Virus record (IMG/VR): IMGVR_UViG_3300033121_000493
Span: 96,001 to 160,000 of that record
Source: a virus
Taxonomy: Duplodnaviria; Caudoviricetes
Strand: one strand, 5' to 3'
DNA length: 64,000 nucleotides
In this document: positions 3,060 through 36,566 of the stretch, piece after piece
How the letters are laid out: every line of letters begins with the position of its first letter
Numbering within the stretch: position 1 is the first letter of the stretch
Translations under genes and position numbers: made by a program
The notes under the pieces: generated by a model
The model's database searches: none
What the model was told of the DNA's origin: nothing
Seen by the model: the letters and a program-made list of their open reading frames with translations, nothing else

Positions 3060-3352
3060 TAGCCGTGAACTCCTTCCATGACAATGGCTTCGGCTTTGAC
3101 GATCGCAGACTCGTCTAGAAACTTAAACGCTATATGTAGAACTTCATGAATGATTTTAGCTAAGCGCCCTTTAGATTTAAGATGTGGCGACAGTTTGATA
3201 CGTCGCTTCGTGAAATCTACAAACGCCCAGTTATTTTTTCCTGGCGGCTCTATTGCTATACGCCACATTTTTTTGTCTAGCTTTATTTTTACTGATTTTG
3301 CTCGCTTTTTCTTTTTTGGCTGGCGAGATGCTTTCGGTTTCATTAGCGGCAC
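3014..3352 (-). CDS. Small HExxH (zincin-like) putative metallopeptidase
   Basis: RIKLSPHL ... IIHEVLHI ... DE. Confidence 0.55.
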   Translation of the reverse strand: MPLMKPKASRQPKKKKRAKSVKIKLDKKMWRIAIEPPGKNNWAFVDFTKRRIKLSPHLKSKGRLAKIIHEVLHIAFKFLDESAIVKAEAIVMEGVHGYWKLEKLLNHTAKSE

Positions 3353-3662: not shown

Positions 3663-4515
3663 CTTGTGTTACCTCTTCTGGCCCGTCTAGAACTTCAATT
3701 TCTGACCTCTCAATAGGTCTCACGAAATGTCTTGTATACAAAACACCGCTGTGGTGTAGGCGGATTAAACTACCGCCTATTTGCGGTGACGACGTACGTG
3801 CTCCGGCGATTTTATACGCGAACGGAGTCTTTAATTGCCAAGCAGGAGTAACGTATATAAACGACTCACCTTTGGCTGTAGGAACTTTGACTTCGCAATG
3901 GCGATGTCGATGAGACCGAACTGCTGCTGTAGGGATTGGTACTCCCCATCTACCACACTCATTGATTAATTCGTTTAGCTCTTTTCCGACTGCTGACGAT
4001 TCGTAGGCGTTTGATGAAACAGTACTGATGTGGTGTAAGAAATTGATATAGTGCCCGCCCAGCTGTAGCCAAAGATCGTATCGTGCATGCTGCCCAATAC
4101 TATTTGGCTTAGCGCCTAAACGCTTAGCTAGACGTTCCTCTTCAATACCACTTTTGCCTACGTGGGCTTCAGTGCCTCGTATATGGAAATACCCACTAGA
4201 TCGATCTACGATCGGGGCAAGTAATTCATAGGCTATGTTAGCTTGATCTTCTAAATTTTGAGTGATTTGAGTTGTAGAGTCGTGATGCTTGCCGTCAATA
4301 ACATCGCCGTTATGTACTAATATAAATGGCTCATCGCCTATTTCTGACGGCAACCAGGTATTCCAAAAGTAATCCCATATATCATATAACTTAGCTTGAA
4401 ATTTAGAAGGGGTGTACACACCACCTTCATCGAGCCTGACGCCGGTTGGCGGACAAATTGATAACTGGCATCCACAATGTGTGTCTGAGATAGTGACTAC
4501 ATTTGTTACGTTCAT
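3589..4515 (-). CDS. Calcineurin-like metallophosphoesterase
   Basis: SDTHCG, NGDVIDG, RGTEAH, HH, SHRH motifs. Confidence 0.85.
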   Translation of the reverse strand: MNVTNVVTISDTHCGCQLSICPPTGVRLDEGGVYTPSKFQAKLYDIWDYFWNTWLPSEIGDEPFILVHNGDVIDGKHHDSTTQITQNLEDQANIAYELLAPIVDRSSGYFHIRGTEAHVGKSGIEEERLAKRLGAKPNSIGQHARYDLWLQLGGHYINFLHHISTVSSNAYESSAVGKELNELINECGRWGVPIPTAAVRSHRHRHCEVKVPTAKGESFIYVTPAWQLKTPFAYKIAGARTSSPQIGGSLIRLHHSGVLYTRHFVRPIERSEIEVLDGPEEVTQVVKTAKTNAAGYRGRRTSKPQRSK

Positions 4516-15349: not shown

Positions 15350-15742
15350 TTATTTTCTCGCATAAGTAGGTGGTACTTCAACCTGCGCTGCGTCATATTT
15401 TACAAAGTCTATCCACTCTATGTAAACCTTCCAGTTACCATTATGACATTTTCTGTCTATAAACACAATAGCTGACTTACCACTAGTGGCATTCGTGTAT
15501 AGAGTAGAAACTAACTTTGTGTACTCATCAAGGTCTTTTTGGACAGCCAGATTAAACACAGCGGCGTGAAACACGCCACCTTTTTTTACGTTAGATTTTT
15601 CACCATTTCTATATAGCGGAGGACGCGCGCCTATAAATGGAGCGTCATTATCTCTGTTGAATACTTTTAGACCATTTTGATCTGGATGGTCCTGTCCAGA
15701 CATTATACGAATGATCTCATCATAACTGATCTGTCTGCTCAT
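15350..15742 (-). CDS. Hypothetical protein
   Basis: 130-aa ORF within the putative structural block. Confidence 0.7.
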   Translation of the reverse strand: MSRQISYDEIIRIMSGQDHPDQNGLKVFNRDNDAPFIGARPPLYRNGEKSNVKKGGVFHAAVFNLAVQKDLDEYTKLVSTLYTNATSGKSAIVFIDRKCHNGNWKVYIEWIDFVKYDAAQVEVPPTYARK

Positions 15743-17315
15743 CTGTTATACCGCTTCTTCTACGGATGTCAGCCGTCATTTGTCTATAGTAATCAGCTAA
15801 ATCTCGTTTACGTAAATCGTCAACATTATCAGACGTTACGGATAAGCCTTTTCTAGTTAAGCTGCCTAATCCAGCCCCAGCTATAAATGGGATTCCTAGT
15901 AGCGTAGCTATAGCCGTTGGACCTAATTTTGACAAACCCAACCCGCTGGCAATAGCGGCTGTAGTCATTTCACCAGATGTTGGTAAGGCTGCTGTGCCAG
16001 CTAGATTAGTAGCAGCAGCTGGTAGCGCTACAGCAGGATTAGCTTGCTTAGTAATCAGTTCATCTAAACTATCTGGCGTGTACCCTAGCTCTGCCATCTT
16101 AGTCAAAAATCCAACTTTAAATGCTTGCTTGCTATCCACGTTAGCGCCTTTCATAAATCCTTTTAAAGCTGAATATATTGTAGCTGCGCCTAGGGCTGTG
16201 TTCTTGAACCAACTAGGCGCGCCTAGCGCGCTAGACACAGCGTAAGCTGCACCGACGGTAGGAATAGCGTTACCTATTACATCAGGCAACGCAGATAGTA
16301 ACGAGCCCGGACTCGCGCCACCAGTAAGGCCGACACCTTGTTCATGCCCGGCCTGGGCTATCAGCTGCTTCATCTTAACCCGTTCCATCAGATTAGGATA
16401 CGGATTACGCTCAATCTCATCCATCGCAGTTGACACAGAAAAGCTAGGTCGCCAAAGCTGGTCGTTATAGCCATCTGCTTTCTTTGTCAACACATCAGGT
16501 AAATGTACCGGCGTGGCTGCAGGTAATTGAAACTCTGGCTGCGGCAGAGAATGCAACATCTGTGAGCGCCAATCAGAAAAGTTACGTACAGCTGGCGTAT
16601 TAAAGTAACCGCCATATAGCTTTTTGTGAACAGACGATTGCAGTAACCCTGGCAAACTTCCCAGCAGAATGCCAGCTAACGTCATAGTGGTACGCGATCT
16701 GGATGGGTCAAAGCCAAGACGCTCTAGAATAGGGCTACCTATAAATCTACCGCCCAGTCCGCCTAGCGCGCTACCGACACCCAATGTAACACCAGGCTGC
16801 TGAAACATACTATTAGCTTTCTTTTCAGCTAGTTCTATTGGGGTCTTGCTGCCGTCAGTAGAGCAGAAGGACAAATCAGTACACGAAAACTTAACGCCAG
16901 ATAACTTATCGTTACCAGCGTATGCTTGTCCTCTATCTTTTTTTACGTAAGCAAGTGTCACGTGAGGTACAAACCTTTTGCGCGTATCCACAACGTCTGT
17001 TTTATCCCGTACAGCATCTCGCAATCTTGAAAGACCGTCGCCGGTTACTGATACAAAAACCACATCGCCATCGTCATTAGAAAAGTAGTCAGTACTACCT
17101 AACTCCACATCACAACCGTACTGGTCTTGTAACGCAGCCTGTACACTGGCTACGTCATTATCCTTTATGCCGTACTGTACAGTTACATGGGGTTGTTTCT
17201 CAAATTCAACCACATCATCCTTATTGATAATCTGTAAAGCTAAATTGACAACGCGTTCAGCTATATCGCTGGGTAGGTCTAACTGAACAGAGCAGTACTT
17301 ATACGTATCAGACAT
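15720..17315 (-). CDS. Fusion of an N-terminal 2H phosphoesterase (Acb1/T4 gp57B-like) with a Gly-zipper-rich putative virion protein
   Basis: PHVTVQYG and PHVTLAY (two HxT motifs) within aa 1-165, followed by Gly/Ala-rich modules bounded by KKA, KKA, KGA and KQA. Confidence 0.8.
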   Translation of the reverse strand: MSDTYKYCSVQLDLPSDIAERVVNLALQIINKDDVVEFEKQPHVTVQYGIKDNDVASVQAALQDQYGCDVELGSTDYFSNDDGDVVFVSVTGDGLSRLRDAVRDKTDVVDTRKRFVPHVTLAYVKKDRGQAYAGNDKLSGVKFSCTDLSFCSTDGSKTPIELAEKKANSMFQQPGVTLGVGSALGGLGGRFIGSPILERLGFDPSRSRTTMTLAGILLGSLPGLLQSSVHKKLYGGYFNTPAVRNFSDWRSQMLHSLPQPEFQLPAATPVHLPDVLTKKADGYNDQLWRPSFSVSTAMDEIERNPYPNLMERVKMKQLIAQAGHEQGVGLTGGASPGSLLSALPDVIGNAIPTVGAAYAVSSALGAPSWFKNTALGAATIYSALKGFMKGANVDSKQAFKVGFLTKMAELGYTPDSLDELITKQANPAVALPAAATNLAGTAALPTSGEMTTAAIASGLGLSKLGPTAIATLLGIPFIAGAGLGSLTRKGLSVTSDNVDDLRKRDLADYYRQMTADIRRRSGITDEQTDQL

Positions 17316-21461: not shown

Positions 21462-22100
21462 CTAATTGTCAGCTGATAGCTTAGCGAATGATACCGTCTT
21501 TATACAAACAGTGGGGATTTCTACACTTACACCGCAGTGTTTTACTTTGTGTTCGGCATTACTGCCATCGCTTAAAAGAATAACTAGAGTGAAATCGCTG
21601 CCTATGGGCGGCTCAAAGTGTAAGTCATCGTCGCCAACTGTGGTGGAGAACACCAGCGTTATAAGATTGTCGTCGGCAATAACATCAGCCGGACGCGTTT
21701 TAAACTTACCAAAGTCACCAACCATAGTAACTTGCATAGGGCGGTCAGCATACTTTGGAAATGGCGTACCACTAGAAGTAGTTTCTTCTCTAACTACTAC
21801 CGGCGGCAGCACTGGCTGCGTGGCTACTACTGAACGTTTAGTGGCTGCTGTCTTTTTTTTAGCGCTGTTTTGTGGCGAAGGCGATTCAGACTCGGCCGAT
21901 ATAGTCGTAGACTGACCGATGGTCTGTAGCGGAATAGTGATTATGCCATTTGCCGAATTCATATCTGGCCTACCACCTTCTGAATCTTTATACGAACTAG
22001 GTATTACGGTCATACCTTGTTCGTGGTCTCTGTAATACTGGTTATTACGCTCTACGCCTTCAGCGCCTAACAGTGAACTTAGATCTTTCGCCGCTTTCAT
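21462..22100 (-). CDS. Hypothetical protein
   Basis: 212-aa ORF with GAGG RBS. Confidence 0.75.
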   Translation of the reverse strand: MKAAKDLSSLLGAEGVERNNQYYRDHEQGMTVIPSSYKDSEGGRPDMNSANGIITIPLQTIGQSTTISAESESPSPQNSAKKKTAATKRSVVATQPVLPPVVVREETTSSGTPFPKYADRPMQVTMVGDFGKFKTRPADVIADDNLITLVFSTTVGDDDLHFEPPIGSDFTLVILLSDGSNAEHKVKHCGVSVEIPTVCIKTVSFAKLSADN

Positions 22101-22191
22101 ATTTACCTCAATCGTGTAGCGCGCTACAGTCTATGATCCCTAAAAATTTGCCAACTGTTTAATCGTAGTTTTGCCCACTCGGGCTTGTGAC

Positions 22192-22261
22192 AGTAACTAG
22201 TATAGTGTCAGCCTGATTTGCTTCAAATAGGAAGCGTACAGGAGATACCATACTAGTTACT
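22192..22261 (-). ncRNA. Long imperfect hairpin downstream of tRNA-Lys (unknown structured element)
   Basis: Perfect 12-bp AGTAACTAGTAT/ATACTAGTTACT closing stem plus inner CCTG/CAGG and GCTTC/GAAGC helices. Confidence 0.45.
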
Positions 22262-22300
22262 ATACTCTACCACGCTGAATACGTCCAGCTGGCTACATAC

Positions 22301-22373
<73 letters not shown>

Positions 22374-22376
22374 GTA

Positions 22377-22430
22377 CCACACTGCGCGTAAACCACAGAG
22401 CCATTACTGGCAGGGAAAAGCACGGTGTGG
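22377..22430 (-). ncRNA. Inter-tRNA structured element E1
   Basis: 11-position terminal stem (one mismatch, one G-U), internal loop, GCCA-GUAA-UGGC GNRA hairpin. Confidence 0.6.
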
Positions 22431-22433
22431 AAA

Positions 22434-22506
22434 TAGGAGTGGGTGGAATCGAACCACCGACCTAGACTTTATAAGAATCTTGCTCTTACCACTGAGCTAC
22501 ACTCCC
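22434..22506 (-). tRNA. tRNA-Ile(TAT)
   Basis: GGGAGTG/CACTCCT acceptor; AGATT-CTTATAA-AGTCT. Confidence 0.9.
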
Positions 22507-22507
22507 A

Positions 22508-22569
22508 TTCATACCGCGCGTAGCGGGAAAAGGCCATTACTGGCCGCGACGTTGAATGCGCAGTATGAA
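22508..22569 (-). ncRNA. Inter-tRNA structured element E2 (paralogue of E1)
   Basis: 12-bp terminal stem UUCAUACUGCGC/GCGCGGUAUGAA, internal loop, GGCCA-GUAA-UGGCC hairpin. Confidence 0.6.
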
Positions 22570-22571
22570 CA

Positions 22572-22645
22572 TGGGCCTAGCAGGGCTCGAACCTGCGACA
22601 AAGGGATTATGAGTCCCCTGCTCTGACCAACTGAGCTATAGGCCC
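22572..22645 (-). tRNA. tRNA with CAT anticodon, Ile2-like (elongator Met not excluded)
   Basis: GGGCCTA/TAGGCCC acceptor; GGGGA-CTCATAA-TCCCT; overall resemblance to bacterial tRNA-Ile2. Confidence 0.85.
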
Positions 22646-22867
22646 AAAAAACCCCGTAACTTGCCCTAAAGCCCTAATAAGGCTTGCGTTACAGCAAGCA
22701 GCCACTACTATTGGAACAGGCTTGTTTGAGGCCGGTACAGGTAACGGGGGCGTCAAGCAAGATCGCCAAGACTATAATAGTGACAATATTGTCACACCCA
22801 GCTTTCTTGCTTGTTTCCTACATAACACTTGACCTACTAGTAACTATACGACTAGCAGGCTTAAGTC

Positions 22868-23290
22868 TCAACTGCGCCAAAACGACTTACACAGACTCGC
22901 AAAAGAAGCTTTAATACGATGCCACCAGGATGCGGATTTTTGCTTTAGTCGTTTTGCTTCGTCATCAAAATCGCCTAGTGCTGCGCCGAGGCATATAATG
23001 TTATGCCCGGCTAGCGCAGCATTGTAAGAAGTGTAACGACGACTACCAGATGCAATCTCGGCACCAGCGAGGTTATTCTCGTTACGCACAAACGTCGCTG
23101 TAGACCAGAGTACCGGGTCTCCTTCTACAGTAGAATCAGTAGCTACACCTAGAAAAATTGTACTGACTATAACGTGCTCGAAAAAAACACAACCTACATC
23201 AAATCTTCCAGTAGCACCTTGTGCCATAGTTAGCTGGGATGACGGAACTTTTACCGGATTATTATCGTCATCTAGTATGTAATAATTCAT
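22868..23290 (-). CDS. Conserved phage hypothetical protein
   Basis: YYILDDDNNPV ... VSTIFLG ... PVLWST ... RRYTSYNAALAGH. Confidence 0.7.
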   Translation of the reverse strand: MNYYILDDDNNPVKVPSSQLTMAQGATGRFDVGCVFFEHVIVSTIFLGVATDSTVEGDPVLWSTATFVRNENNLAGAEIASGSRRYTSYNAALAGHNIICLGAALGDFDDEAKRLKQKSASWWHRIKASFASLCKSFWRS

Positions 23291-23475
23291 ACGCGCCTAT
23301 TTGCAGCGGCCTGCTTTTCTTCTGCTAGACGTAACTTGATATCACCACTCAGTTTAAGAAGTGGGTAGATTACTTCTTCTTGTAACCGCCGCTTCTCGTC
23401 TTGTGTTAAGCCGTACAGAGACACCCCGGTTAGCTTAAAATATGCCTCTTGTAACAGCTGGTTGGCTAGTACCAC
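23287..23475 (-). CDS. Hypothetical protein
   Basis: 62-aa ORF overlapping the next start by 4 nt. Confidence 0.55.
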   Translation of the reverse strand: MVLANQLLQEAYFKLTGVSLYGLTQDEKRRLQEEVIYPLLKLSGDIKLRLAEEKQAAANRRV

Positions 23476-23478
23476 TAA

Positions 23479-23592
23479 TCACCGCTTAGCGCTGTGTAGT
23501 AACACAGCCAGCGTAAACGAACACGCGAAGATAATTAGCGTTATGGTTGTAATTGTAGAAACAACTTTCGGTTCGAAAAGGATGGTTGCCAT
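23479..23592 (-). CDS. Small membrane peptide (37 aa)
   Basis: MATILFEPKVVSTITTITLIIFACSFTLAVLLHSAKR; start placed just after tRNA-Gln. Confidence 0.4.
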   Translation of the reverse strand: MATILFEPKVVSTITTITLIIFACSFTLAVLLHSAKR

Positions 23593-23594
23593 AT

Positions 23595-23665
23595 TAGGGC
23601 TACCTGGTGTCGAACCAGGGACTGCTGGTCCAAAGCCAGCCGCGTTACCGCTACGCCATAGCCCT
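23595..23665 (-). tRNA. tRNA-Gln(TTG)
   Basis: AGGGCTA/TAGCCCT acceptor; GCTGG-CTTTGGA-CCAGC. Confidence 0.93.
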
Positions 23666-23675
23666 GAAAAACCCT

Positions 23676-23941
23676 GACTCATTTAGGTCACCTATAAATG
23701 TGTAAAATAATTACACGTACAGGTTGAACTGCTGCCAGTATGCGTATGCATCCGCTACTGGCACAACGAGTGACGCCTATATAAGTCAGGTACATAGTAG
23801 CAGACTGCGTGTTAATAGCTGTCTACTTTTAGGTCGACAGCTACACCGTAGTGGCTGTGCCAGTACGTCTTAAGTCTGCTACCTCTATAAAGTTGCAAGC
23901 ACTACGGTGCTGGATTTTTCAGCCGCACACCTAAGTGATTC
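23676..23941 (-). ncRNA. Unknown ~265-nt highly paired (pseudoknotted) RNA between tRNA-Arg and tRNA-Gln
   Basis: Three perfect 10-bp crossing complementary pairs, an 8-bp hairpin and an end-to-end stem; no ORF. Strand inferred from the flanking tRNAs. Confidence 0.65.
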
Positions 23942-23946
23942 CAACA

Positions 23947-24020
23947 CGTGCCCGGAGGGACTTGAACCCCCAGTTAGGGGATTAGAAATCCCCTGTTTTG
24001 TCCAATTAAACTACGGGCAC
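23947..24020 (-). tRNA. tRNA-Arg(TCT)
   Basis: GTGCCCG/CGGGCAC acceptor; GGGGA-TTTCTAA-TCCCC. Confidence 0.93.
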
Positions 24021-24042
24021 AATGCAAGCGGTCAAGAATCAA

Positions 24043-24580
24043 TCATGGCAATACGATCAAACCGTACATAGGACTGGAATTCATTATTGCACAAATCTTG
24101 GTAACTAAGTCTATATCAGACTGTAGCACCACCCATGATTTATGAATTCGACCGCCGCAATTAACACACCTATCAAAAACGAGCTCCGCACACATCAGCT
24201 TTACTACACCTGGCGTATCGGCGGTTATGCTATATGTGCTGTCAGTAAACAGTAAGGAATTTACTATCGCCACGCAATGCATACGCGTAATCACAGTATA
24301 CGGCAATTTGCGTAAAATGGCATTAACCTAGCTACAGTTTGCGGGCTAATGTACGGTATATATGATGCATACGATAGAGCAGATCTAGCCACATATCAGA
24401 GTGTAACTTTCCCCAGAAAGAGATGCGGTGGTTATAGAGTACGTTAAAGTAGTGGTTTGTATGTATAAGTATTGGATTTACCCAGTAATTAGGACGTTTG
24501 CGCTTTATTACACGGGTAGCTCTAGGAAAGATGGATGAGCGCCCATTGTACACGATAAACTTAACGGCTAGACTTTCCAT
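24043..24580 (-). other. Two short hypothetical ORFs (24043..24306, 24332..24580)
   Basis: Same character as the other short R/Y/I-rich ORFs. Confidence 0.45.
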
Positions 24581-24894
24581 GTAATAACAACGTTCCAGCC
24601 ATATTGTGAGCCGTAATCACAACTCTCGCAACCGCGATAGCTTATGTTATCGACATCGTCGATATCTGCTACATCATCACCAAGTGCTTCTTTGATGACA
24701 CCAGCAATAGACTTGTATTTGTCACGTACCGTAGGAACCTCGTACATTCTTGTGATTGTTAGCCTAGACTTATTTGGTTTATCGGTTGGTTTAAGATTTA
24801 ACTTCATGCCAACCAAGTCTGGATCTGACCCAAAATCTACATGCGGCTTAAGCAAATTATATAACTCAGTGCTAGTATAAGTACGAACTGCCAT
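24568..24894 (-). CDS. Phage hypothetical protein (GCESCDYG motif)
   Basis: 108 aa, GGAG RBS, C-terminal GCESCDYG. Confidence 0.75.
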   Translation of the reverse strand: MAVRTYTSTELYNLLKPHVDFGSDPDLVGMKLNLKPTDKPNKSRLTITRMYEVPTVRDKYKSIAGVIKEALGDDVADIDDVDNISYRGCESCDYGSQYGWNVVITWKV

Positions 24895-24925
24895 GCCCGG
24901 ACTCCATATAGTGATAAACCACGAA

Positions 24926-24998
24926 TGGGTGAGAAGGGAGTCGAACCCTCACTGAAGGGTTTTTAAAACCCCTGCCTCTGCCGTTGGGCTACCCACCC
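24926..24998 (-). tRNA. tRNA-Leu(TAA), short variable loop
   Basis: GGGTGGG/CTCACCC acceptor; GGGGT-TTTAAAA-ACCCT. Confidence 0.9.
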
Positions 24999-25013
24999 AC
25001 TACAAGAAATGAT

Positions 25014-25086
25014 TAGCGGAGGCTGGACTCGAACCAACGACCTCCAGGTTATGAGCCTGGCGAGCTACCGACTGCTCTACCCCGCC
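25014..25086 (-). tRNA. tRNA-Met(CAT), initiator-like
   Basis: GGCGGGGTAGAGCAGTCGGTAGCTCG resembles the tRNA-fMet D arm; CCAGG-CTCATAA-CCTGG has only two of the three G-C initiator pairs. Confidence 0.88.
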
Positions 25087-25098
25087 ACTAAGACAAAG

Positions 25099-25167
25099 TC
25101 GTGACACTAGGATTCGAACCTAGAACTTCTACGATGTAGACGTTTTGTTTCATTAAACTACATCACG
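25099..25167 (-). ncRNA. tRNA-like RNA with an anticodon arm 4 nt short (pseudo-tRNA or tRNA mimic)
   Basis: Acceptor CGTGATG/TGTCACG, D stem GTTT/AAAC, perfect T arm CTAGG-TTCGAAT-CCTAG, but anticodon arm TCTAC-ATC-GTAGA. Confidence 0.75.
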
Positions 25168-25171
25168 GTTT

Positions 25172-25242
25172 AGCCTTCTGTAGGAATCGAACCTACATCA
25201 GCTGATTACAAATCAGCCGTTTTGCCGTTAAACTAAGAAGGC
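25172..25242 (-). tRNA. tRNA-Thr(TGT)
   Basis: GCCTTCT/AGAAGGC acceptor; GCTGA-TTTGTAA-TCAGC. Confidence 0.95.
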
Positions 25243-25333
25243 GTCGCATCCAGTGGGTTACGTAGACCGCCTACGTTGAGGGCCACTGGATGGAGTGAGG
25301 AGTTTATCAATGCAGCAATTTGGAGTCAAACTG

Positions 25334-25870
25334 CTACACGGCGGACGTTGGCTCTGTGTTTTGTTGTGTTGTCTGGTCGGATTGCTCGACAGTTGGTTCA
25401 GCGGTGGAGCTGGCCTGTGGGCGCTCCGTGTTCATGAACGCAACAAACTCGTCGTTGTAGTCGTCGATCAGCGAGTCAAAGACAGCCCAGAATTTTGGTT
25501 CTTCTCTAGCCACGTGCTTAATATCTTGTAGTATTAAACTTAACGAGTAATCTTCTTCGACTGCGTATGCTCTTGCCAGGCAAAATAAATCAATAAACAT
25601 TCGTATGCGGGTCTCCGGTCGTACGGTGAGCGGCATACTATGAATCATAGTCTTCAATTCCAGTAGCTTTAACGTAACTGCGTCTTCAACCAGCGGCGGG
25701 TTGTCATCGTCTAGTTCCGATTTGTTACAAAGACAGAAATTGTCTGTTTTGTTACTCACGGCAAAACGATTTTCAATATCAATCATCTTAAAAGCAATGT
25801 AAACAGACAGTAACATACTGGCAACGGCGATAATAGCAAAATATATGTCCACCAACTCTCCTTTGGCCAA
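25334..25870 (-). CDS. Hypothetical protein with an N-terminal transmembrane helix
   Basis: IYFAIIAVASMLLSVYIAF. Confidence 0.7.
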   Translation of the reverse strand: MAKGELVDIYFAIIAVASMLLSVYIAFKMIDIENRFAVSNKTDNFCLCNKSELDDDNPPLVEDAVTLKLLELKTMIHSMPLTVRPETRIRMFIDLFCLARAYAVEEDYSLSLILQDIKHVAREEPKFWAVFDSLIDDYNDEFVAFMNTERPQASSTAEPTVEQSDQTTQQNTEPTSAV

Positions 25871-25894
25871 TAGCTAAAAATTTTGCGTGTGACA

Positions 25895-25933
25895 GAACAA
25901 ATGTAGCCCGCCCCCACACACGGGGCGGGCTAC
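25895..25933 (-). terminator. GC-rich hairpin, probable terminator
   Basis: 12-bp GTAGCCCGCCCC/GGGGCGGGCTAC stem followed by ATTTGTTCT on the minus strand. Confidence 0.55.
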
Positions 25934-26041
25934 GCTCAACACAGACAACAAAGTCAAGTTTGGCTGGTGAATAAACTTGAATAGTTCAAGCTATTACACA
26001 GTCAAACTTAAAAAGACGTGCTCGCGCCGTGGGTCGACCAA

Positions 26042-26077
26042 TTAGTTGGCTTCGTCAAAGAAATTGAAAGTTTTCAT
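26042..26077 (-). CDS. Minigene MKTFNFFDEAN
   Basis: GAAAGGAGGTTAGCC-ATG: perfect SD with 6-nt spacing. Confidence 0.55.
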   Translation of the reverse strand: MKTFNFFDEAN

Positions 26078-26160
26078 GGCTAACCTCCTTTCTACTTGAA
26101 AAAGGTGACAAAGCGACAGGTGGCACGCTTCAAGCGGTTCGTACCAAATGAACAAAGTAG

Positions 26161-26187
26161 CTACGCGTAACCGTCAAACATAGACAT
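26161..26187 (-). CDS. Minigene MSMFDGYA (or MFDGYA)
   Basis: TAGGAGGTGA-ATG-TCT-ATG: perfect SD. Confidence 0.5.
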   Translation of the reverse strand: MSMFDGYA

Positions 26188-26643
26188 TCACCTCCTATTC
26201 TTACGCTGCGGCGAAATACCGCCTACAGCTTGCTGCGTTTGCTTACAGGCTGCTTATGCCTGTAGCGCGCTACCGACAGGCCGGCAACAATACCGACAAA
26301 TCCGCCAGCAACACACCCAAAAAATGCAAACAAAGCCCACCAGCCGATGCTGACCGCTACAGGTAGTGTCATCACCGGCCCTTCGCGGCGGCTGCGATGA
26401 TGCCGAACAAGACCAGCAGAAAAATAAGCAGCGTGGACAGAAAACACGCGTCTGGCCACTCAAGAAGTGCCAACATGATTTGCTCTCGCATATGAGACGT
26501 GTTTGACGCCGAACTCAAACCCAAGAGCTAGCAATTTGGCAGCGCAAAAAGCCAACTCTTGGGTTTTACAATCTGCAATAACTACGCGCCCGAAAAAGGT
26601 AACCGACGTGTCGACTACCTCGAACGGCGCTACGTTACTACAG

Positions 26644-27684
26644 TTATTTGTTGCCGTCAACGCGGTCACGCAGCTCCGACACTTCATCGCCGAAGATGGT
26701 GTCGGTGCCGATATCGCTCGAAGTGCGCAGCTGGCCAGCGATCTGCGCGGCAACGTCATCGCCGATGATGGGGCGGTGCTCGCCAGCACTGCGGCTGCTG
26801 GCAACTTCGGTCCGATCTTGATTGTCATTCCGCCTGTTGTGACGATTGCTGCGGTTCGCAGGGTTGGTGTCGGCCCGCAACGTGTAGTCAAGCGAGCCGA
26901 TGGCCAGCTTCGCGGAAAGCTGATCGTCAGGGCGAATGTAGACCGGAGTGTTGACCTTGACATAGATGTTGCTGACGTCGTACACGCCGGAAGACCACCG
27001 AACCGGATACAGCGGGCTGCCGATGTGATCGACAACGTGTTGCGTGATCACGTGCTGCAGAAGCTTCTCGCTGTCTTCGGGATACTGCTGCAGAAGCTTG
27101 GCGAATGCCGCTTGTGACAACCGCGTCGCGCACGCATCGCTGAATGGCTTGCTGAGAACGCCGACAGGAATGGTTCCTTGCGTTTGCCCGGTGACAATTT
27201 GCCAGGCATCCCAGCGCACCACTTCCATGTTGAGCGGCTCAGACGCGGCCGCGCTGAAGTAGATCGGCAGATCACCAAACGGAGTTTCGATCGGCTGGAT
27301 CTCAGAGTCTTTGCCGAGAAGCAACATCGCCGAATCGTAATTGTTGTACGCGTGGCGCGCACGCGTACGATCGGTGATTTGATTGCTCCGCGCCGCCTCG
27401 TAATCCTGCACGATGAACTTGTAATCCCACCACTTGTTCCCGCGCAGCGCGAAAACGCCAGACGTGCCGACATCGAAGCGCAGGTAGCAGAACCGGTTCA
27501 CGGTGATGCTGTTGCCACGGACGCGGTCGCTCCCGGTGCTCTGTCGAGCGGACGGGGTAACGACGTCGATGAACATGGAAAACAGCTTCGAATCAGTGAG
27601 TCGGGCGATCCCGTTCACGGCACGCGCCGACAGCGCCACGAAACCAACGCGATTGATGAATTTGTCCGGAGCAACTGACGTCAT
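26644..27684 (-). CDS. Hypothetical protein with GC-rich codon usage
   Basis: 346 aa, AGGAG RBS, clearly higher GC than the rest of the window. Confidence 0.85.
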   Translation of the reverse strand: MTSVAPDKFINRVGFVALSARAVNGIARLTDSKLFSMFIDVVTPSARQSTGSDRVRGNSITVNRFCYLRFDVGTSGVFALRGNKWWDYKFIVQDYEAARSNQITDRTRARHAYNNYDSAMLLLGKDSEIQPIETPFGDLPIYFSAAASEPLNMEVVRWDAWQIVTGQTQGTIPVGVLSKPFSDACATRLSQAAFAKLLQQYPEDSEKLLQHVITQHVVDHIGSPLYPVRWSSGVYDVSNIYVKVNTPVYIRPDDQLSAKLAIGSLDYTLRADTNPANRSNRHNRRNDNQDRTEVASSRSAGEHRPIIGDDVAAQIAGQLRTSSDIGTDTIFGDEVSELRDRVDGNK

Positions 27685-32768: not shown

Positions 32769-35700
32769 CTAGCAAGACGACTGTCCACAACTGTAGCACT
32801 TTTTACAACCCTCTGCTATCACTAGCGTGCCGCGACAATTAGGCGACGGACACGGCGTAGATAGCATGTCTACGGCGTTGATCTTTCTTGAAAGATCTTT
32901 AACTACACTAGTAGGCGCTGTACTACTCGGCGACGAACAATTGTTGCCGTCACTAGCGGATAGACCTAATCCACTCCACGGCATACACGTAATAAGTCCA
33001 TCTGAATTGCGACAATCTATTGTCGCCGCGTAGTAGGCTAGTAAGCCAGCAGCTATTTCATTAGGAAGACTAGTAGTAAGCCCATTAACGTTATGCTTCT
33101 CGCCTAAAGACTTACCACCGCTCAACTGATCAATTATCACTTCTAGTCCTGCGCCAGTCTGAAGCAACTTGCTACACAAACGAGCAACGGCGTCTAGCAT
33201 GGCGTTCAACGGATCGCCACTGCGCCCAATCTCAAAGAATACCTGGCACTCTCGCCAAGTACCGTCTGGCAAGCTTTCAAACGAAACGTTGATATGCATA
33301 GTACCGTAAGTACACTTATGCTTGTAGTACAAACCAGGCATAAGCGTCGGCATGGTAGATAGCTTTTTATTAGTAATAGGTGGTACCTCTTCTTTATCCT
33401 TTGCCGCTTGCTTGAGCGCCATAGGCTGCCCGGCCCTACAATTATCGCGGTACACCGTCACGCCTTTGCACCGCAAATTGTAAGCAGTGATATAAGCGGT
33501 ACGTACATCATCAAGTGACGCCGACTCGGGTAGATTGATCGTCTTAGAAATAGCACTAGTCACATGCTCCTGGAAAGCAGCCTGCATCTTAATATGATCT
33601 TCAGGAGATATATCTCTAGCTGACCGCAGAATGTTCTTGATGTTGTCAGGAATGTCAGGACAGCCCTGTACCGTACCATTCGTAGCTACGTACTCATACA
33701 CTTCTGGCTTATCAAAACCATATAGCTTAGCGAGCGCTTTAAAGTTCTTGTTAACTTCAACCAGTTTCTTATCACCAAGAACATAACGATAGAACGCAAA
33801 ACTAAACAACGGCTCAATACCACCAGAACAATCAGCGATAATGCTGATAGTACCAGTAGGAGCAACCGTCGTGACGCACGCGTTACGAATAGGCGCACCG
33901 TTAAGGCGTTTTGGCCAAACACTCTTATCGTAGTTAGGGAACGCTCCACGCTCCTTCGCTAGATTGATACTGGCGTTAACAGCTCGGTTGTTGATAAACG
34001 ACATCAAGTTACGACCGAACTCAATACCTTCTGGCGAGTCATAACGAATGCCTAGCTGCACCAGCATGTCAGCAAAGCCCATAATACCCAAACCGATTCG
34101 TCGATTAGCGTCGTTAGCGGCGACAATTTCCTTTACAGGGTGATTGTTTACGGTAACAACATTATCTAGGAATCTAACAACCATATCGACGTCGTCACCA
34201 AGTGCGACCATGTCAACGTCGTCAAACGATCCCTGTTCGGTGATTCTATCGGTAATTGGCTTAACGTACTTAGCAAGGTTTATTGATGCTAGGTTGCAAC
34301 TTTCCCACGGGCCAAGTGGCTGCTCCCCGCAAGGATTTGTGGCCTGAATCGGCATAACATCTGGTAGCGCCTCAGTCTCTCGTACGCGAGAAATAAAGAA
34401 CAAACCAGGCTCACCAGTCTGCCACGCATTCTTAAGAATGATATCAAATATATCACCAACGCTTAAGCAATCGCTGATATCTGTAGTTGTGTCAGGCACT
34501 AAGTCGCTAAGCTGATAGCAAGTATCAAGCGTGCGTGGATGCACCTTACCGGAGATACCATCCGCTACCGCAGTCTTACATTTATCAACAATAGCACGAG
34601 GAATATACCAATTCTTATCCTTCCAGCTAACAACGTGTAGAGCAGCAGGATTTTCTTTCAACTGCTCCATAAAGCTATCTGGAACTTTGACTGAGATATT
34701 GTAATTCTCAAATTGCTTGAGGTCTTGCTTAGCAAATAGGAACTTAACTATATCTGGGTGGTGGACCGACATGACAGCCATGTTGGCTCCACGTCTAAAG
34801 CTTCCTTGCTGAATAGCACTGGTTGCCTCGCTGAACACACGCCAAAAAGACAATGGACCACTGGACTTTCCACCAGAGCTAGCCACGTATTGTCCGCATG
34901 GGCGTAGCTCGTCAAATGCGTAACCTGTGTTATGTACAATAGCCGGTAGGCCGCCACAGACAACAACATAACGAGAAAACTCACTAACAGTCAGATCATA
35001 CAAATCTGTGGCTACATCAGACGTCACCTCTTTGACAGATATAGCGTTAGCCAAATGCGATATAGCACTATCGTCAAGATTATCAGCAATGCTACTAAGA
35101 TTACGCCGTGAAGTAGACTTAGTCTGCGAATATACTAATGACTGTACATCAGGACCGCTACCCAAAGTTCCTCGGGTATCGCTACGCGTACTATCAAATT
35201 TTCCACTAGCCAAAATCTTATCGCGTACCCAGTCAGGCGTCTGGACCACACGGCTATCTGGAGACGCTAACCAATTTACTAGTCTATCTTTACGAAATTT
35301 CCTGTTTAACAAAGCTGGCAGCCAGGGTACATCGTGTGCCGCAAACGTAACTTCATAGCAATTACGTGTACCACGTTTACCCGGCAAACGCTCGCGCAGA
35401 CGTGTAGGACAGCCAAGAACACCAAGAACACCTTGTACACGCTCACACAGCTCGCGATGGACGGACGAAATAGAAACTCTCGGTCTGCTAGCTTCAACAT
35501 GTCCATCACTGTCTATTAGACCAGCGATGTAACTAGCCGCCTCATGTAACGAGGCTGGATTAAAACCAGGTATATCATTCTTAGCGCCAACACCAATCCA
35601 CTGTTTAGCTTCGGCTATTAGACTTTTATCTAATACCGTTAATTCATACACAGTTGCACCCGAAGCGTGAACAGAATATGGCTTACCACACAAATTAAAC

Positions 35701-36566
35701 ACGTAATCTTTAACAACATTTAACGTTGCTTCGTCGCCAGAAAAAATGCGCAGCCTGTCTGGACGACCATTCTTACCCTCTGATACTAGACCATCGCCTA
35801 CAATCACACCTGCAAGATACGCACGCTGGTCTAATTCTATCTGATTCGTGTACGGGGTGGGCCGGACAAGCGCCGTACCAGCTCCTGTGTCTTCAGCCGG
35901 TACAAATGACGGCCCGTCTTTACCTACAACAAAACACGGATGCTCTTTACTGGCTGTTAGTGTGCCATATGAGGTAGCAATATTGCGCGTCTTTTTATCA
36001 ACAAATCGCCAAACACGCGTAACTGGTCTAAAGCAAATTTTACCGAAATTATCGGCGGTTAGAACTTCTATATCCTTAACGTCTACGAAAACGCCATCTA
36101 CGTCCGGACGCGGCAAAATAGCACAAAGATCTGCAATGCGGGTAAGACCCTTACCACGCACAAATACTTGAGCATCACCGGCCACACATCCACCGCCTGC
36201 GCGTTGGACTAGCCCTGTCGCCTTAACAGAATCAAAGATGTTGTCTATAGAATCGCCAACAGGCAACACATAACACGCGCTAAGCAGATTGTTATTTCTA
36301 CCAGCGTTCATGAGAGTAGGCGAGTTGGGCATAAATCTGCCCTCAAGCATACCATTAAGGAACCGCTGGTACCACAGCTCCTCATCAGCGTCATTCTGTT
36401 CGGCTGACGCTACGTAGCGCGCTACGCGCGAGAAAAGCCCAAACGGCTCTTCTGTTAAAACGCCATCTTTTCTATTAAGATACCTGTCTTTAAGAACAAC
36501 CAACGCATTTTCTGTCAGCATAGGGACAGCAGGATCTACCACTACCTCAGTAGCAACTTGAGACAT
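32769..36566 (-). CDS. nrdJ: Class II (adenosylcobalamin-dependent) ribonucleotide reductase with intein
   Basis: FMPNSPTLMNAG, SAC, RRGANM, TNPCGEQPL, APTGTISII, KGVTVYRD, C-terminal TSCPD-like domain and EGCKKCYSCG. Confidence 0.95.
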   Translation of the reverse strand: MSQVATEVVVDPAVPMLTENALVVLKDRYLNRKDGVLTEEPFGLFSRVARYVASAEQNDADEELWYQRFLNGMLEGRFMPNSPTLMNAGRNNNLLSACYVLPVGDSIDNIFDSVKATGLVQRAGGGCVAGDAQVFVRGKGLTRIADLCAILPRPDVDGVFVDVKDIEVLTADNFGKICFRPVTRVWRFVDKKTRNIATSYGTLTASKEHPCFVVGKDGPSFVPAEDTGAGTALVRPTPYTNQIELDQRAYLAGVIVGDGLVSEGKNGRPDRLRIFSGDEATLNVVKDYVFNLCGKPYSVHASGATVYELTVLDKSLIAEAKQWIGVGAKNDIPGFNPASLHEAASYIAGLIDSDGHVEASRPRVSISSVHRELCERVQGVLGVLGCPTRLRERLPGKRGTRNCYEVTFAAHDVPWLPALLNRKFRKDRLVNWLASPDSRVVQTPDWVRDKILASGKFDSTRSDTRGTLGSGPDVQSLVYSQTKSTSRRNLSSIADNLDDSAISHLANAISVKEVTSDVATDLYDLTVSEFSRYVVVCGGLPAIVHNTGYAFDELRPCGQYVASSGGKSSGPLSFWRVFSEATSAIQQGSFRRGANMAVMSVHHPDIVKFLFAKQDLKQFENYNISVKVPDSFMEQLKENPAALHVVSWKDKNWYIPRAIVDKCKTAVADGISGKVHPRTLDTCYQLSDLVPDTTTDISDCLSVGDIFDIILKNAWQTGEPGLFFISRVRETEALPDVMPIQATNPCGEQPLGPWESCNLASINLAKYVKPITDRITEQGSFDDVDMVALGDDVDMVVRFLDNVVTVNNHPVKEIVAANDANRRIGLGIMGFADMLVQLGIRYDSPEGIEFGRNLMSFINNRAVNASINLAKERGAFPNYDKSVWPKRLNGAPIRNACVTTVAPTGTISIIADCSGGIEPLFSFAFYRYVLGDKKLVEVNKNFKALAKLYGFDKPEVYEYVATNGTVQGCPDIPDNIKNILRSARDISPEDHIKMQAAFQEHVTSAISKTINLPESASLDDVRTAYITAYNLRCKGVTVYRDNCRAGQPMALKQAAKDKEEVPPITNKKLSTMPTLMPGLYYKHKCTYGTMHINVSFESLPDGTWRECQVFFEIGRSGDPLNAMLDAVARLCSKLLQTGAGLEVIIDQLSGGKSLGEKHNVNGLTTSLPNEIAAGLLAYYAATIDCRNSDGLITCMPWSGLGLSASDGNNCSSPSSTAPTSVVKDLSRKINAVDMLSTPCPSPNCRGTLVIAEGCKKCYSCGQSSC
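34929..36188 (-). mobile_element. Intein (420 aa) with LAGLIDADG homing endonuclease in NrdJ
   Basis: AGGG|CVAGD ... IVHN|TGY; block B ASKEHP; LAGVIVGDG and IAGLIDSDG. Confidence 0.93.

Follow-up and report, generated by a model that had tools for sequence, protein, structure and literature searches.

The window, by which we mean the whole 64,000-nt stretch of DNA analysed here, comprises bases 96001-160000 of an IMG/VR phage record of 202,582 bp that is rated complete. The phage is myovirus-like: over the whole record it encodes a tail sheath, a head protease, a family-B-type DNA polymerase and a large terminase. Its TerL is never more than 27% identical to that of a cultured phage, and TerL together with a 603-aa protein assigns it to a clade that is large and uncultured. 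The large subunit of its ribonucleotide reductase (1265 aa, 32769-36566, minus strand) is interrupted at about residues 343-410, where a segment of LAGLIDADG homing-endonuclease or intein type is inserted, and an intein is also found in the terminase of one relative (P0009). The features on which we focus belong to a tRNA island and are listed below in window coordinates.

22101-26643, minus strand: tRNA island of 4.5 kb, which holds 8 tRNAs, one tRNA-like gene, six small ORFs, a structured gap of 265 nt, and the elements E1 and E2
25099-25167, minus strand: tRNA-like gene between tRNA-Thr and tRNA-Met (Rfam, 47 bits; no call by ARAGORN)
22843-22871, minus strand: sigma-70-like promoter (TTGAGA, 17 nt, TATAGT; 10 of 12 matches in a consensus scan)
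22646-22836, minus strand: leader of about 190 nt, structured in the predicted fold (-60.6 kcal/mol), with a z score of -1.7 that is not significant
22572-22645, minus strand: tRNA-Met (CAU), called by ARAGORN and Rfam RF00005 (72.7 bits), CCA not encoded
22508-22569, minus strand: E2, the whole spacer between tRNA-Met and tRNA-Ile(UAU); -26.6 kcal/mol, z -4.2, none of 200 shuffles as good
22532-22545, minus strand: apical hairpin of E2, with UUUUCCC at 22525-22531 in the 3' loop strand
22434-22506, minus strand: tRNA-Ile (UAU), called by ARAGORN and Rfam (70.4 bits), with a G1.U72 acceptor pair, CCA not encoded
22377-22430, minus strand: E1, the whole spacer between tRNA-Ile and tRNA-Lys(UUU); -21.9 kcal/mol, z -2.7, one of 200 shuffles as good
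22400-22411, minus strand: apical hairpin of E1, with UUUUCCC at 22413-22419 in the 5' loop strand
22301-22373, minus strand: tRNA-Lys (UUU), called by ARAGORN and Rfam (75.2 bits), CCA not encoded

The anticodons of the island are Lys UUU, Ile UAU, Arg UCU, Gln UUG, Leu UAA and Thr UGU, plus that of Met. Anticodons of this A/U-ending kind are often supplied by the tRNA sets of phages. That the island tRNAs have an anti-defence role is only a guess. None of the small ORFs of the island matches Pfam or PHROG. In the closest relative in IMG/VR (G001; 216.5 kb, complete), TerL and the 603-aa protein are each 62% identical to those of the present phage. The G001 genome contains no tRNA at all, and the orthologues of the two genes that flank the island here (21462-22100 and 26644-27684) are separated by about 90 nt, in which a terminator is the only feature. 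It is therefore reasoned that the island, E1 and E2 included, is accessory and lineage-specific.

Two genes in the vicinity of the island deserve a remark of their own. The 346-aa ORF that flanks it (26644-27684, minus strand) has no match in Pfam or PHROG, and a word-based protein search with it returned nothing, not even itself. It has a syntenic counterpart in G001 that is 23% identical, and on this basis the ORF is probably a genuine gene that evolves fast. A 531-aa protein encoded downstream of the island, at a distance of a few kilobases (15720-17315, minus strand), carries at its N-terminus a 2H phosphoesterase domain of the 2'-5' RNA ligase superfamily (E 9e-13); gene 57B is placed likewise in T4 and Aeh1.

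The sigma-70-like promoter at 22843-22871 is likely the start of a Met-E2-Ile-E1-Lys transcript, and such transcription would first pass through the leader, whose end is a hairpin with a U6 run that touches position +1 of tRNA-Met. In each unit, the leading tRNA (tRNA-Met at 22645, tRNA-Gln at 23665) is directly preceded by GGG(G)UUUUUU/C, the tail of a terminator-like hairpin (22646-22660 and 23666-23680, minus strand) that ends at tRNA position -1. Downstream of tRNA-Lys, the consensus scan picks up two weaker promoters. Between the tRNAs of the trio, neither the consensus promoter scan nor the terminator scan found any signal, and a single precursor is thus the natural reading; lying between tRNA genes of the same strand with no promoter or terminator intervening, E1 and E2 have the position of transcribed spacers. 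The -10 box of the promoter and the bases downstream of it form a repeat of 14-15 nt, TATAGTWACTAGTA, which occurs at 22835-22849 and 22251-22265, inverted at about 22189-22202, and nowhere else in the 202.6-kb genome. As a direct repeat with copies 584 nt apart, TATAGTWACTAGTA brackets the Met-Ile-Lys trio, and it could be a local duplication of the promoter or the scar of a cassette insertion.

E1 and E2 are predicted to fold into hairpins of the same general plan. In E2, a terminal stem of 12 bp is followed by an internal loop of 12 x 12 nt and an apical stem of 5 bp with a GUAA cap. In E1, the terminal stem has 11 bp with one C.A mismatch, the internal loop is 8 x 12 nt, and the apical stem, again capped by GUAA, has 4 bp. 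What remains of each spacer is very little: E2 is preceded by UG and followed by U, and E1 is preceded by UUU and followed by UAC, so that only 1-3 unpaired bases separate either hairpin from the tRNAs at each junction. When the 371-nt precursor is folded as a whole, it forms five separate domains, namely three cloverleaves and the two hairpins. The fold energies of the two strands are alike and do not separate them; the GNRA loop (GUAA) is present on the minus strand alone, which is the strand of the tRNAs. No U run comes after either hairpin, and the terminator scan was empty at both coordinates, hence neither shows the marks of an intrinsic terminator.

Comparison of the two elements indicates that they are paralogues with a conserved scaffold. 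Overall, 81% of the aligned columns agree, and the agreement is unevenly distributed. The apical hairpin, GCCAGUAAUGGC, is identical in E1 and E2 (12/12 bases), and so is UACGCGC (7/7), which lies where the loop meets the stem on the 3' side. By a hand estimate, an exact 12-mer common to two sequences of 60 nt has a chance expectation of about 1.5e-4. In the terminal stem, 8 of the 24 bases differ and the stem is still maintained: seven pairs are invariant, two show C-G to U-A double changes, one is U-G against C-G, one is C.A against U-G, and the outermost is U.U against U-A. Of the four positions that differ in the 5' strand of the stem, three face a partner that differs as well (P ~0.07, a hypergeometric value calculated by hand that does not require pairing to be retained). 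In a shuffle control of the covariation, 261 of 500 shuffles do as well; this control has no power with two sequences, and the covariation is therefore suggestive rather than proof. E1 and E2 look as if they were selected for their fold. The strands of the internal loop have diverged, with insertions and deletions. UUUUCCC, which occurs only six times on the minus strand of the entire 202,582-nt genome, has two of these occurrences in the loops of E1 and E2, on opposite sides of the apical stem. The two copies are adjacent, in the same orientation and 133 nt apart, and the three tRNAs of the trio are 66-74% alike pairwise, compared with 47-71% for the other tRNA pairs of the genome.

As a description of the locus, the initial annotation has thus stood up well. 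Its coordinates and sequences for E1 and E2 agree with the sequence and with the tRNA boundaries set by ARAGORN and Rfam; the fold that it drew (terminal stem, internal loop, GNRA hairpin) was reproduced with the z scores given above; and the compensatory changes in the stem, the common UACGCGC, the differing loops with UUUUCCC on opposite sides and the filling of the whole spacer were all found as it had claimed. Its further proposal, that E1 and E2 represent a family of small RNAs, was not borne out by searches for relatives. A covariance model built from E1 and E2 (R1; 62 positions, 17 pairs) finds E2 (86.1 bits) and E1 (71.4 bits) and no other copy in the 202.6-kb genome, in agreement with searches for the exact motifs. 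R1 returned nothing from whole records of the phage's own uncultured clade, first 5 and then 30 (about 5 Mb in total, with 0-10 tRNAs each), and nothing from 80 loci syntenic with the gene of the 603-aa protein (1.1 Mb), of which three contain any tRNA.

Pattern scans reached further with the same outcome. A scan of IMG/VR for the apical 12-mer together with UACGCGC gave a single chance match in a coding region of a high-GC phage. A strict three-part pattern had no match in JGI metagenomes or in GTDB genomes, and among the 53 matches to a loose pattern in metagenomes none adjoins a tRNA and none is E-like. A T-loop followed by CCAGTAATGG is matched 35 times in IMG/VR; the nine that adjoin tRNAs consist of terminators and simple hairpins unlike E1 and E2. 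Rfam 15 gave nothing on either spacer, each searched alone at E values up to 10. The anticodon-arm 17-mer of tRNA-Ile(UAU) retrieved no tRNA homologue from IMG/VR, and searches with the 212-aa and 140-aa neighbour proteins found no relatives. By TerL, the closest relatives of all (69% and 65%) are in Logan and ENA contigs (L012 and L010), of which 4-5 kb were viewed, and it is possible that these contigs hold orthologues of E1 and E2. Two candidate identities were tried and dropped: an integron attC site, for which the R box consensus is not at both ends, an integrase is absent and there are two copies only; and a 6S-like or Y-RNA-like RNA, on grounds of size and of the absence of an Rfam match.

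Elements of another kind were seen in the tRNA arrays of two IMG/VR phages, L085 (about 4120-4190, minus strand) and L090 (about 3200-3274, minus strand). In both, a GUAA-capped stem of 7-8 bp is followed by a T-arm-like GGTTCGATTCC, and neither ARAGORN nor Rfam at E values up to 0.01 calls a tRNA there. They may be truncated tRNA-like elements.

A different picture is obtained when architecture rather than sequence is compared. We surveyed every same-strand inter-tRNA spacer of 40-100 nt in seven cultured or MAG phages (GodonK, Myrna, Lak-A1, T4, a T5-like phage, StarPlatinum and Aeh1) and scored as a whole-spacer hairpin any spacer that forms a single hairpin with its ends paired over at least 8 bp. 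Whole-spacer hairpins make up 5 of the 18 spacers, compared with 2.3% in shuffles (binomial p 5e-5). Four of them are in Gordonia phage GodonK (NC_048176, 75.8-84.6 kb), where they separate Gln-Arg, Phe-Arg, Ser-Gln and Pro-Ile, and one is in Mycobacterium phage Myrna. Three more were noticed in two IMG/VR loci that had been fetched for other reasons (L060 and L068); one of these is a 56-nt Ser-Ser spacer with a terminal stem of 12-13 bp and a z score of about -5. Spacers of this type resemble E1 and E2 in being single hairpins with paired ends (8-16 bp) and in their junctions, with 0-2 nt between the hairpin and the tRNA upstream of it and 2-5 nt between the hairpin and the tRNA downstream. 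They differ in having no sequence similarity to E1 and E2, no match to R1 and different interiors. In the phage records these hairpins are unannotated, and the papers searched contain no description of them as a class. In T4, the T5-like phage and Aeh1, tRNAs are mostly packed a few bases apart or separated by ORFs. Closed whole-spacer hairpins are thus a recurrent but sporadic feature of phage tRNA arrays, and E1 and E2 are an instance of it, distinguished as a conserved pair.

Based on these observations, the explanation that we favour, with a confidence that falls a little short of an even chance, is that the tRNA precursor is polycistronic, that E1 and E2 are a duplicated pair of structured internal spacers transcribed as part of it, and that they are excised as by-products of its maturation. 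We infer the transcription of the operon, the cleavage sites, the release of the spacers and any benefit to tRNA maturation, and the course of events would be as follows. The sigma-70-like promoter would drive transcription of the Met-E2-Ile(UAU)-E1-Lys(UUU) operon. Each spacer would fold on itself into a closed hairpin with its first and last bases paired, and such a hairpin would stop the spacer from pairing with neighbouring tRNA sequence, leaving just the few unpaired bases of each junction open. RNase P would cleave at the 5' end of each tRNA, and because CCA is not encoded, an endonuclease of the RNase Z/BN type (or RNase E with trimming) would cleave after each discriminator. The tRNAs would then be completed by a CCA-adding enzyme. 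A search of the 202.6-kb phage genome shows that neither a CCA-adding enzyme nor RNase III is encoded, and the processing is therefore expected to be the work of host enzymes. The spacers would be released as hairpins of 60-65 nt with short overhangs, resistant to exonucleases, and may persist for a while as by-products. Cleavage by RNase P and RNase Z-type enzymes is an established scheme for the maturation of bacterial tRNAs and of the CCA-less tRNAs of T4. In so far as the initial annotation had E1 and E2 released as discrete RNAs by tRNA processing, the whole-spacer position, the CCA-less tRNAs and the expected action of RNase P and RNase Z make this plausible as a prediction from the layout.

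Several observations are in favour of E1 and E2 being structured spacers of this kind. Their position and junctions fit, their folds are significant, and they form separate domains in the precursor fold; the differences between them preserve the stem, and their architecture recurs in other phage arrays. Moreover, no trans target was found in the phage genome, and the collections searched yielded no homologues of the sort expected of a dedicated RNA family. Other observations weigh against it. With a stable helix only 1-3 nt ahead of it, an RNase P site might be cut less readily, not more. Many phage arrays (T4, the T5-like phage, Aeh1) lack such spacers, and a hairpin is therefore not generally required. 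Finally, an identical apical hairpin, an identical UACGCGC and the rare UUUUCCC exceed what a pure folding insulator needs in the way of sequence, and the conservation of the apical loop and UACGCGC suggests that a sequence is recognised and not a shape alone.

Of the competing explanations, the one to which we give most weight is still unlikely: that E1 and E2 arose by a recent tandem duplication of a spacer (or of a unit of tRNA plus spacer, about 133-138 nt), now drift neutrally and carry an inherited hairpin without function. Two adjacent copies in the same orientation, the slightly greater likeness of the flanking tRNAs and the absence of the elements from all relatives searched, within an island that is itself accessory, are what such a history would leave. 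The initial annotation had allowed for a decaying spacer duplication, to be recognised by a lack of further homologues or covariation and of a stable RNA; homologues are indeed lacking in the collections searched, and covariation is nearly so, since it amounts to two pairs in two sequences. The divergence is nevertheless uneven in a way that neutral drift does not predict, with no change in the 12 bases of the apical hairpin, retained pairing in the stem and insertions and deletions in the loops, and under neutral decay eight changes in a 12-bp stem would be expected to disrupt more pairs than the single one that is lost. The flanking tRNAs, furthermore, are as diverged from each other as the spacers are, and a duplication that included the tRNAs is therefore not recent. 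If function is sought instead in the released RNA, E1 and E2 might be trans-acting small RNAs (sponges, decoys or guides) that tRNA processing sets free, with the loop strands, UUUUCCC among them, or the GUAA hairpin binding an RNA or protein of host or phage. We rank this next, as an unlikely reading with precedents, namely rnaC and rnaD of T4, which directly follow tRNA-Arg, and the 3'ETS of leuZ of E. coli (PMC8166272). The layout implies release as discrete, exonuclease-resistant hairpins, and the constancy of the apical hairpin and UACGCGC beside variable loops speaks in favour of this reading, as does the rare heptamer in both loops, on opposite sides of the apical stem. Against this, complements of the loop strands in the phage genome are not above chance (the strong matches are trivially the opposite strand only), no partner gene is recognisable among neighbouring ORFs, which have no Pfam or PHROG match, and the collections searched hold no homologue and hence no sign of a maintained RNA family. 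The guide or decoy function proposed initially finds no backing, and the statement made with it, that no partner protein can be identified, is upheld. More doubtful still is a specific version in which E1 and E2 would be a stable pair of small RNAs made by tRNA end-processing, with no promoter or terminator of their own: the GUAA hairpin and UACGCGC would dock a protein, and the loops with UUUUCCC would titrate or guide a host factor, for example as a decoy tied to an anti-defence role of tRNA-Lys(UUU), -Ile and -Met.

The remaining two explanations look beyond the spacer as such, and we give little credence to either. That E1 and E2 are degenerate tRNA derivatives which kept an acceptor-like helix, either as dead genes or as mimics of tRNA for enzymes that bind it or defence nucleases that target it, is very unlikely. 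A terminal helix of 11-12 bp has the length of the coaxial stack of acceptor and T stem, the central arm is in the place of an anticodon arm, and the same island does contain a tRNA-like gene that ARAGORN missed (25099-25167). The Rfam tRNA model, on the other hand, is silent on both spacers at E values up to 10 and gives the flanking tRNAs 53-75 bits; there is no remnant of a T-loop or D-arm and no 7-nt anticodon loop, and at 54-62 nt the elements are too short. Least probable of all is that E1 and E2 act as DNA, being imperfect palindromes at which recombination or insertion would shuffle tRNA cassettes. The nearly equal folding of both strands would suit such sites, and so would the direct 15-nt repeat, unique in the genome, that brackets the trio. 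That repeat, however, falls on the -10 boxes of promoters; a GNRA loop and G-U pairs are in keeping with the transcribed strand; there are two copies only; no recombinase or integrase is recognised nearby; and IS110 recombinase (PF01548) has zero matches in the whole phage genome. Weighing these alternatives, we return to structured spacers of a tRNA precursor as the preferred account of E1 and E2.

Among known systems, the species 1 and 2 RNAs of T4 (rnaC and rnaD) are like E1 and E2 in being small RNAs, other than tRNAs, that are encoded within the tRNA cluster of a phage. Only 1-6 nt lie between them and a tRNA, and this placement, taken from the record annotation, implies release by tRNA-type processing. 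Unlike E1 and E2, they are 139 and 119 nt long, that is, twice as long, and are located at the end of the cluster and not between tRNAs. Further, rnaC has a tRNA-like T arm, the folds of both differ from those of E1 and E2, and R1 run on the T4 locus found no similarity to either. The stability of rnaC and rnaD has been established experimentally, whereas E1 and E2 are known from sequence alone. To our knowledge, the function of the T4 species 1 and 2 RNAs has been an open question for fifty years.

The 3'ETS of leuZ in E. coli is a 53-nt excised spacer that sponges the small RNAs RyhB and RybB by base-pairing (PMC8166272). It is a transcribed spacer of some 50-60 nt that the nucleases of tRNA processing cut out of a polycistronic precursor, as is predicted for E1 and E2. 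According to the same review, no stable internal spacer had been reported (PMC8166272). The 3'ETS of leuZ, in contrast to E1 and E2, is an external trailer that bears a terminator; E1 and E2 are internal, lack a terminator, and no pairing partner was found for them.

In the tRNA-miRNA units of murine gammaherpesvirus 68 and in synthetic tRNA-gRNA arrays, RNase P and RNase Z cut hairpins out of a transcript that includes a tRNA, as is proposed here for E1 and E2. Both of these are eukaryotic, and their hairpins feed Dicer or Cas9; the difference is that downstream machinery like Dicer or Cas9 is not evident for E1 and E2.

H/ACA RNAs and the bridge RNAs of IS110 elements, to which E1 and E2 had been likened in the initial annotation, share with them the outline of stem, internal loop and stem, with two unpaired loop strands. 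The likeness ends there, since the defining features are not found. H/ACA RNAs require an ACA (or H) box that sits 3 nt before the 3' end, at a distance of about 14-16 nt from the pocket; they also need a synthase of the Cbf5/TruB type and an archaeal or eukaryotic setting. In E1 and E2, the stem is followed by UAC or U, respectively, and then directly by the tRNA, with no ACA in register; the context is a tailed phage; Rfam 15 has no match; and a TruB/Cbf5 synthase (PF01509) was not found in the 202.6-kb genome by a search whose control was positive in 14 of 14 genomes. A bridge RNA of an IS110 element is about 150-250 nt long, has two internal loops, one that binds target and one that binds donor, and lies beside an IS110-family (DEDD) recombinase. 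E1 and E2, in comparison, have one internal loop and 54-62 nt, in a genome with no PF01548.

If E1 and E2 are only structured spacers, they are an ordinary finding, one more example of closed whole-spacer hairpins that seem to be under-described, and such hairpins could matter for the maturation of dense, CCA-less phage tRNAs by host RNase P and RNase Z. If they turn out to be stable and trans-acting, one would have in them a compact phage equivalent of both the T4 species 1 and 2 RNAs and the spacer sponges of E. coli, and one that is easily put to the test, the whole operon being shorter than 600 nt.
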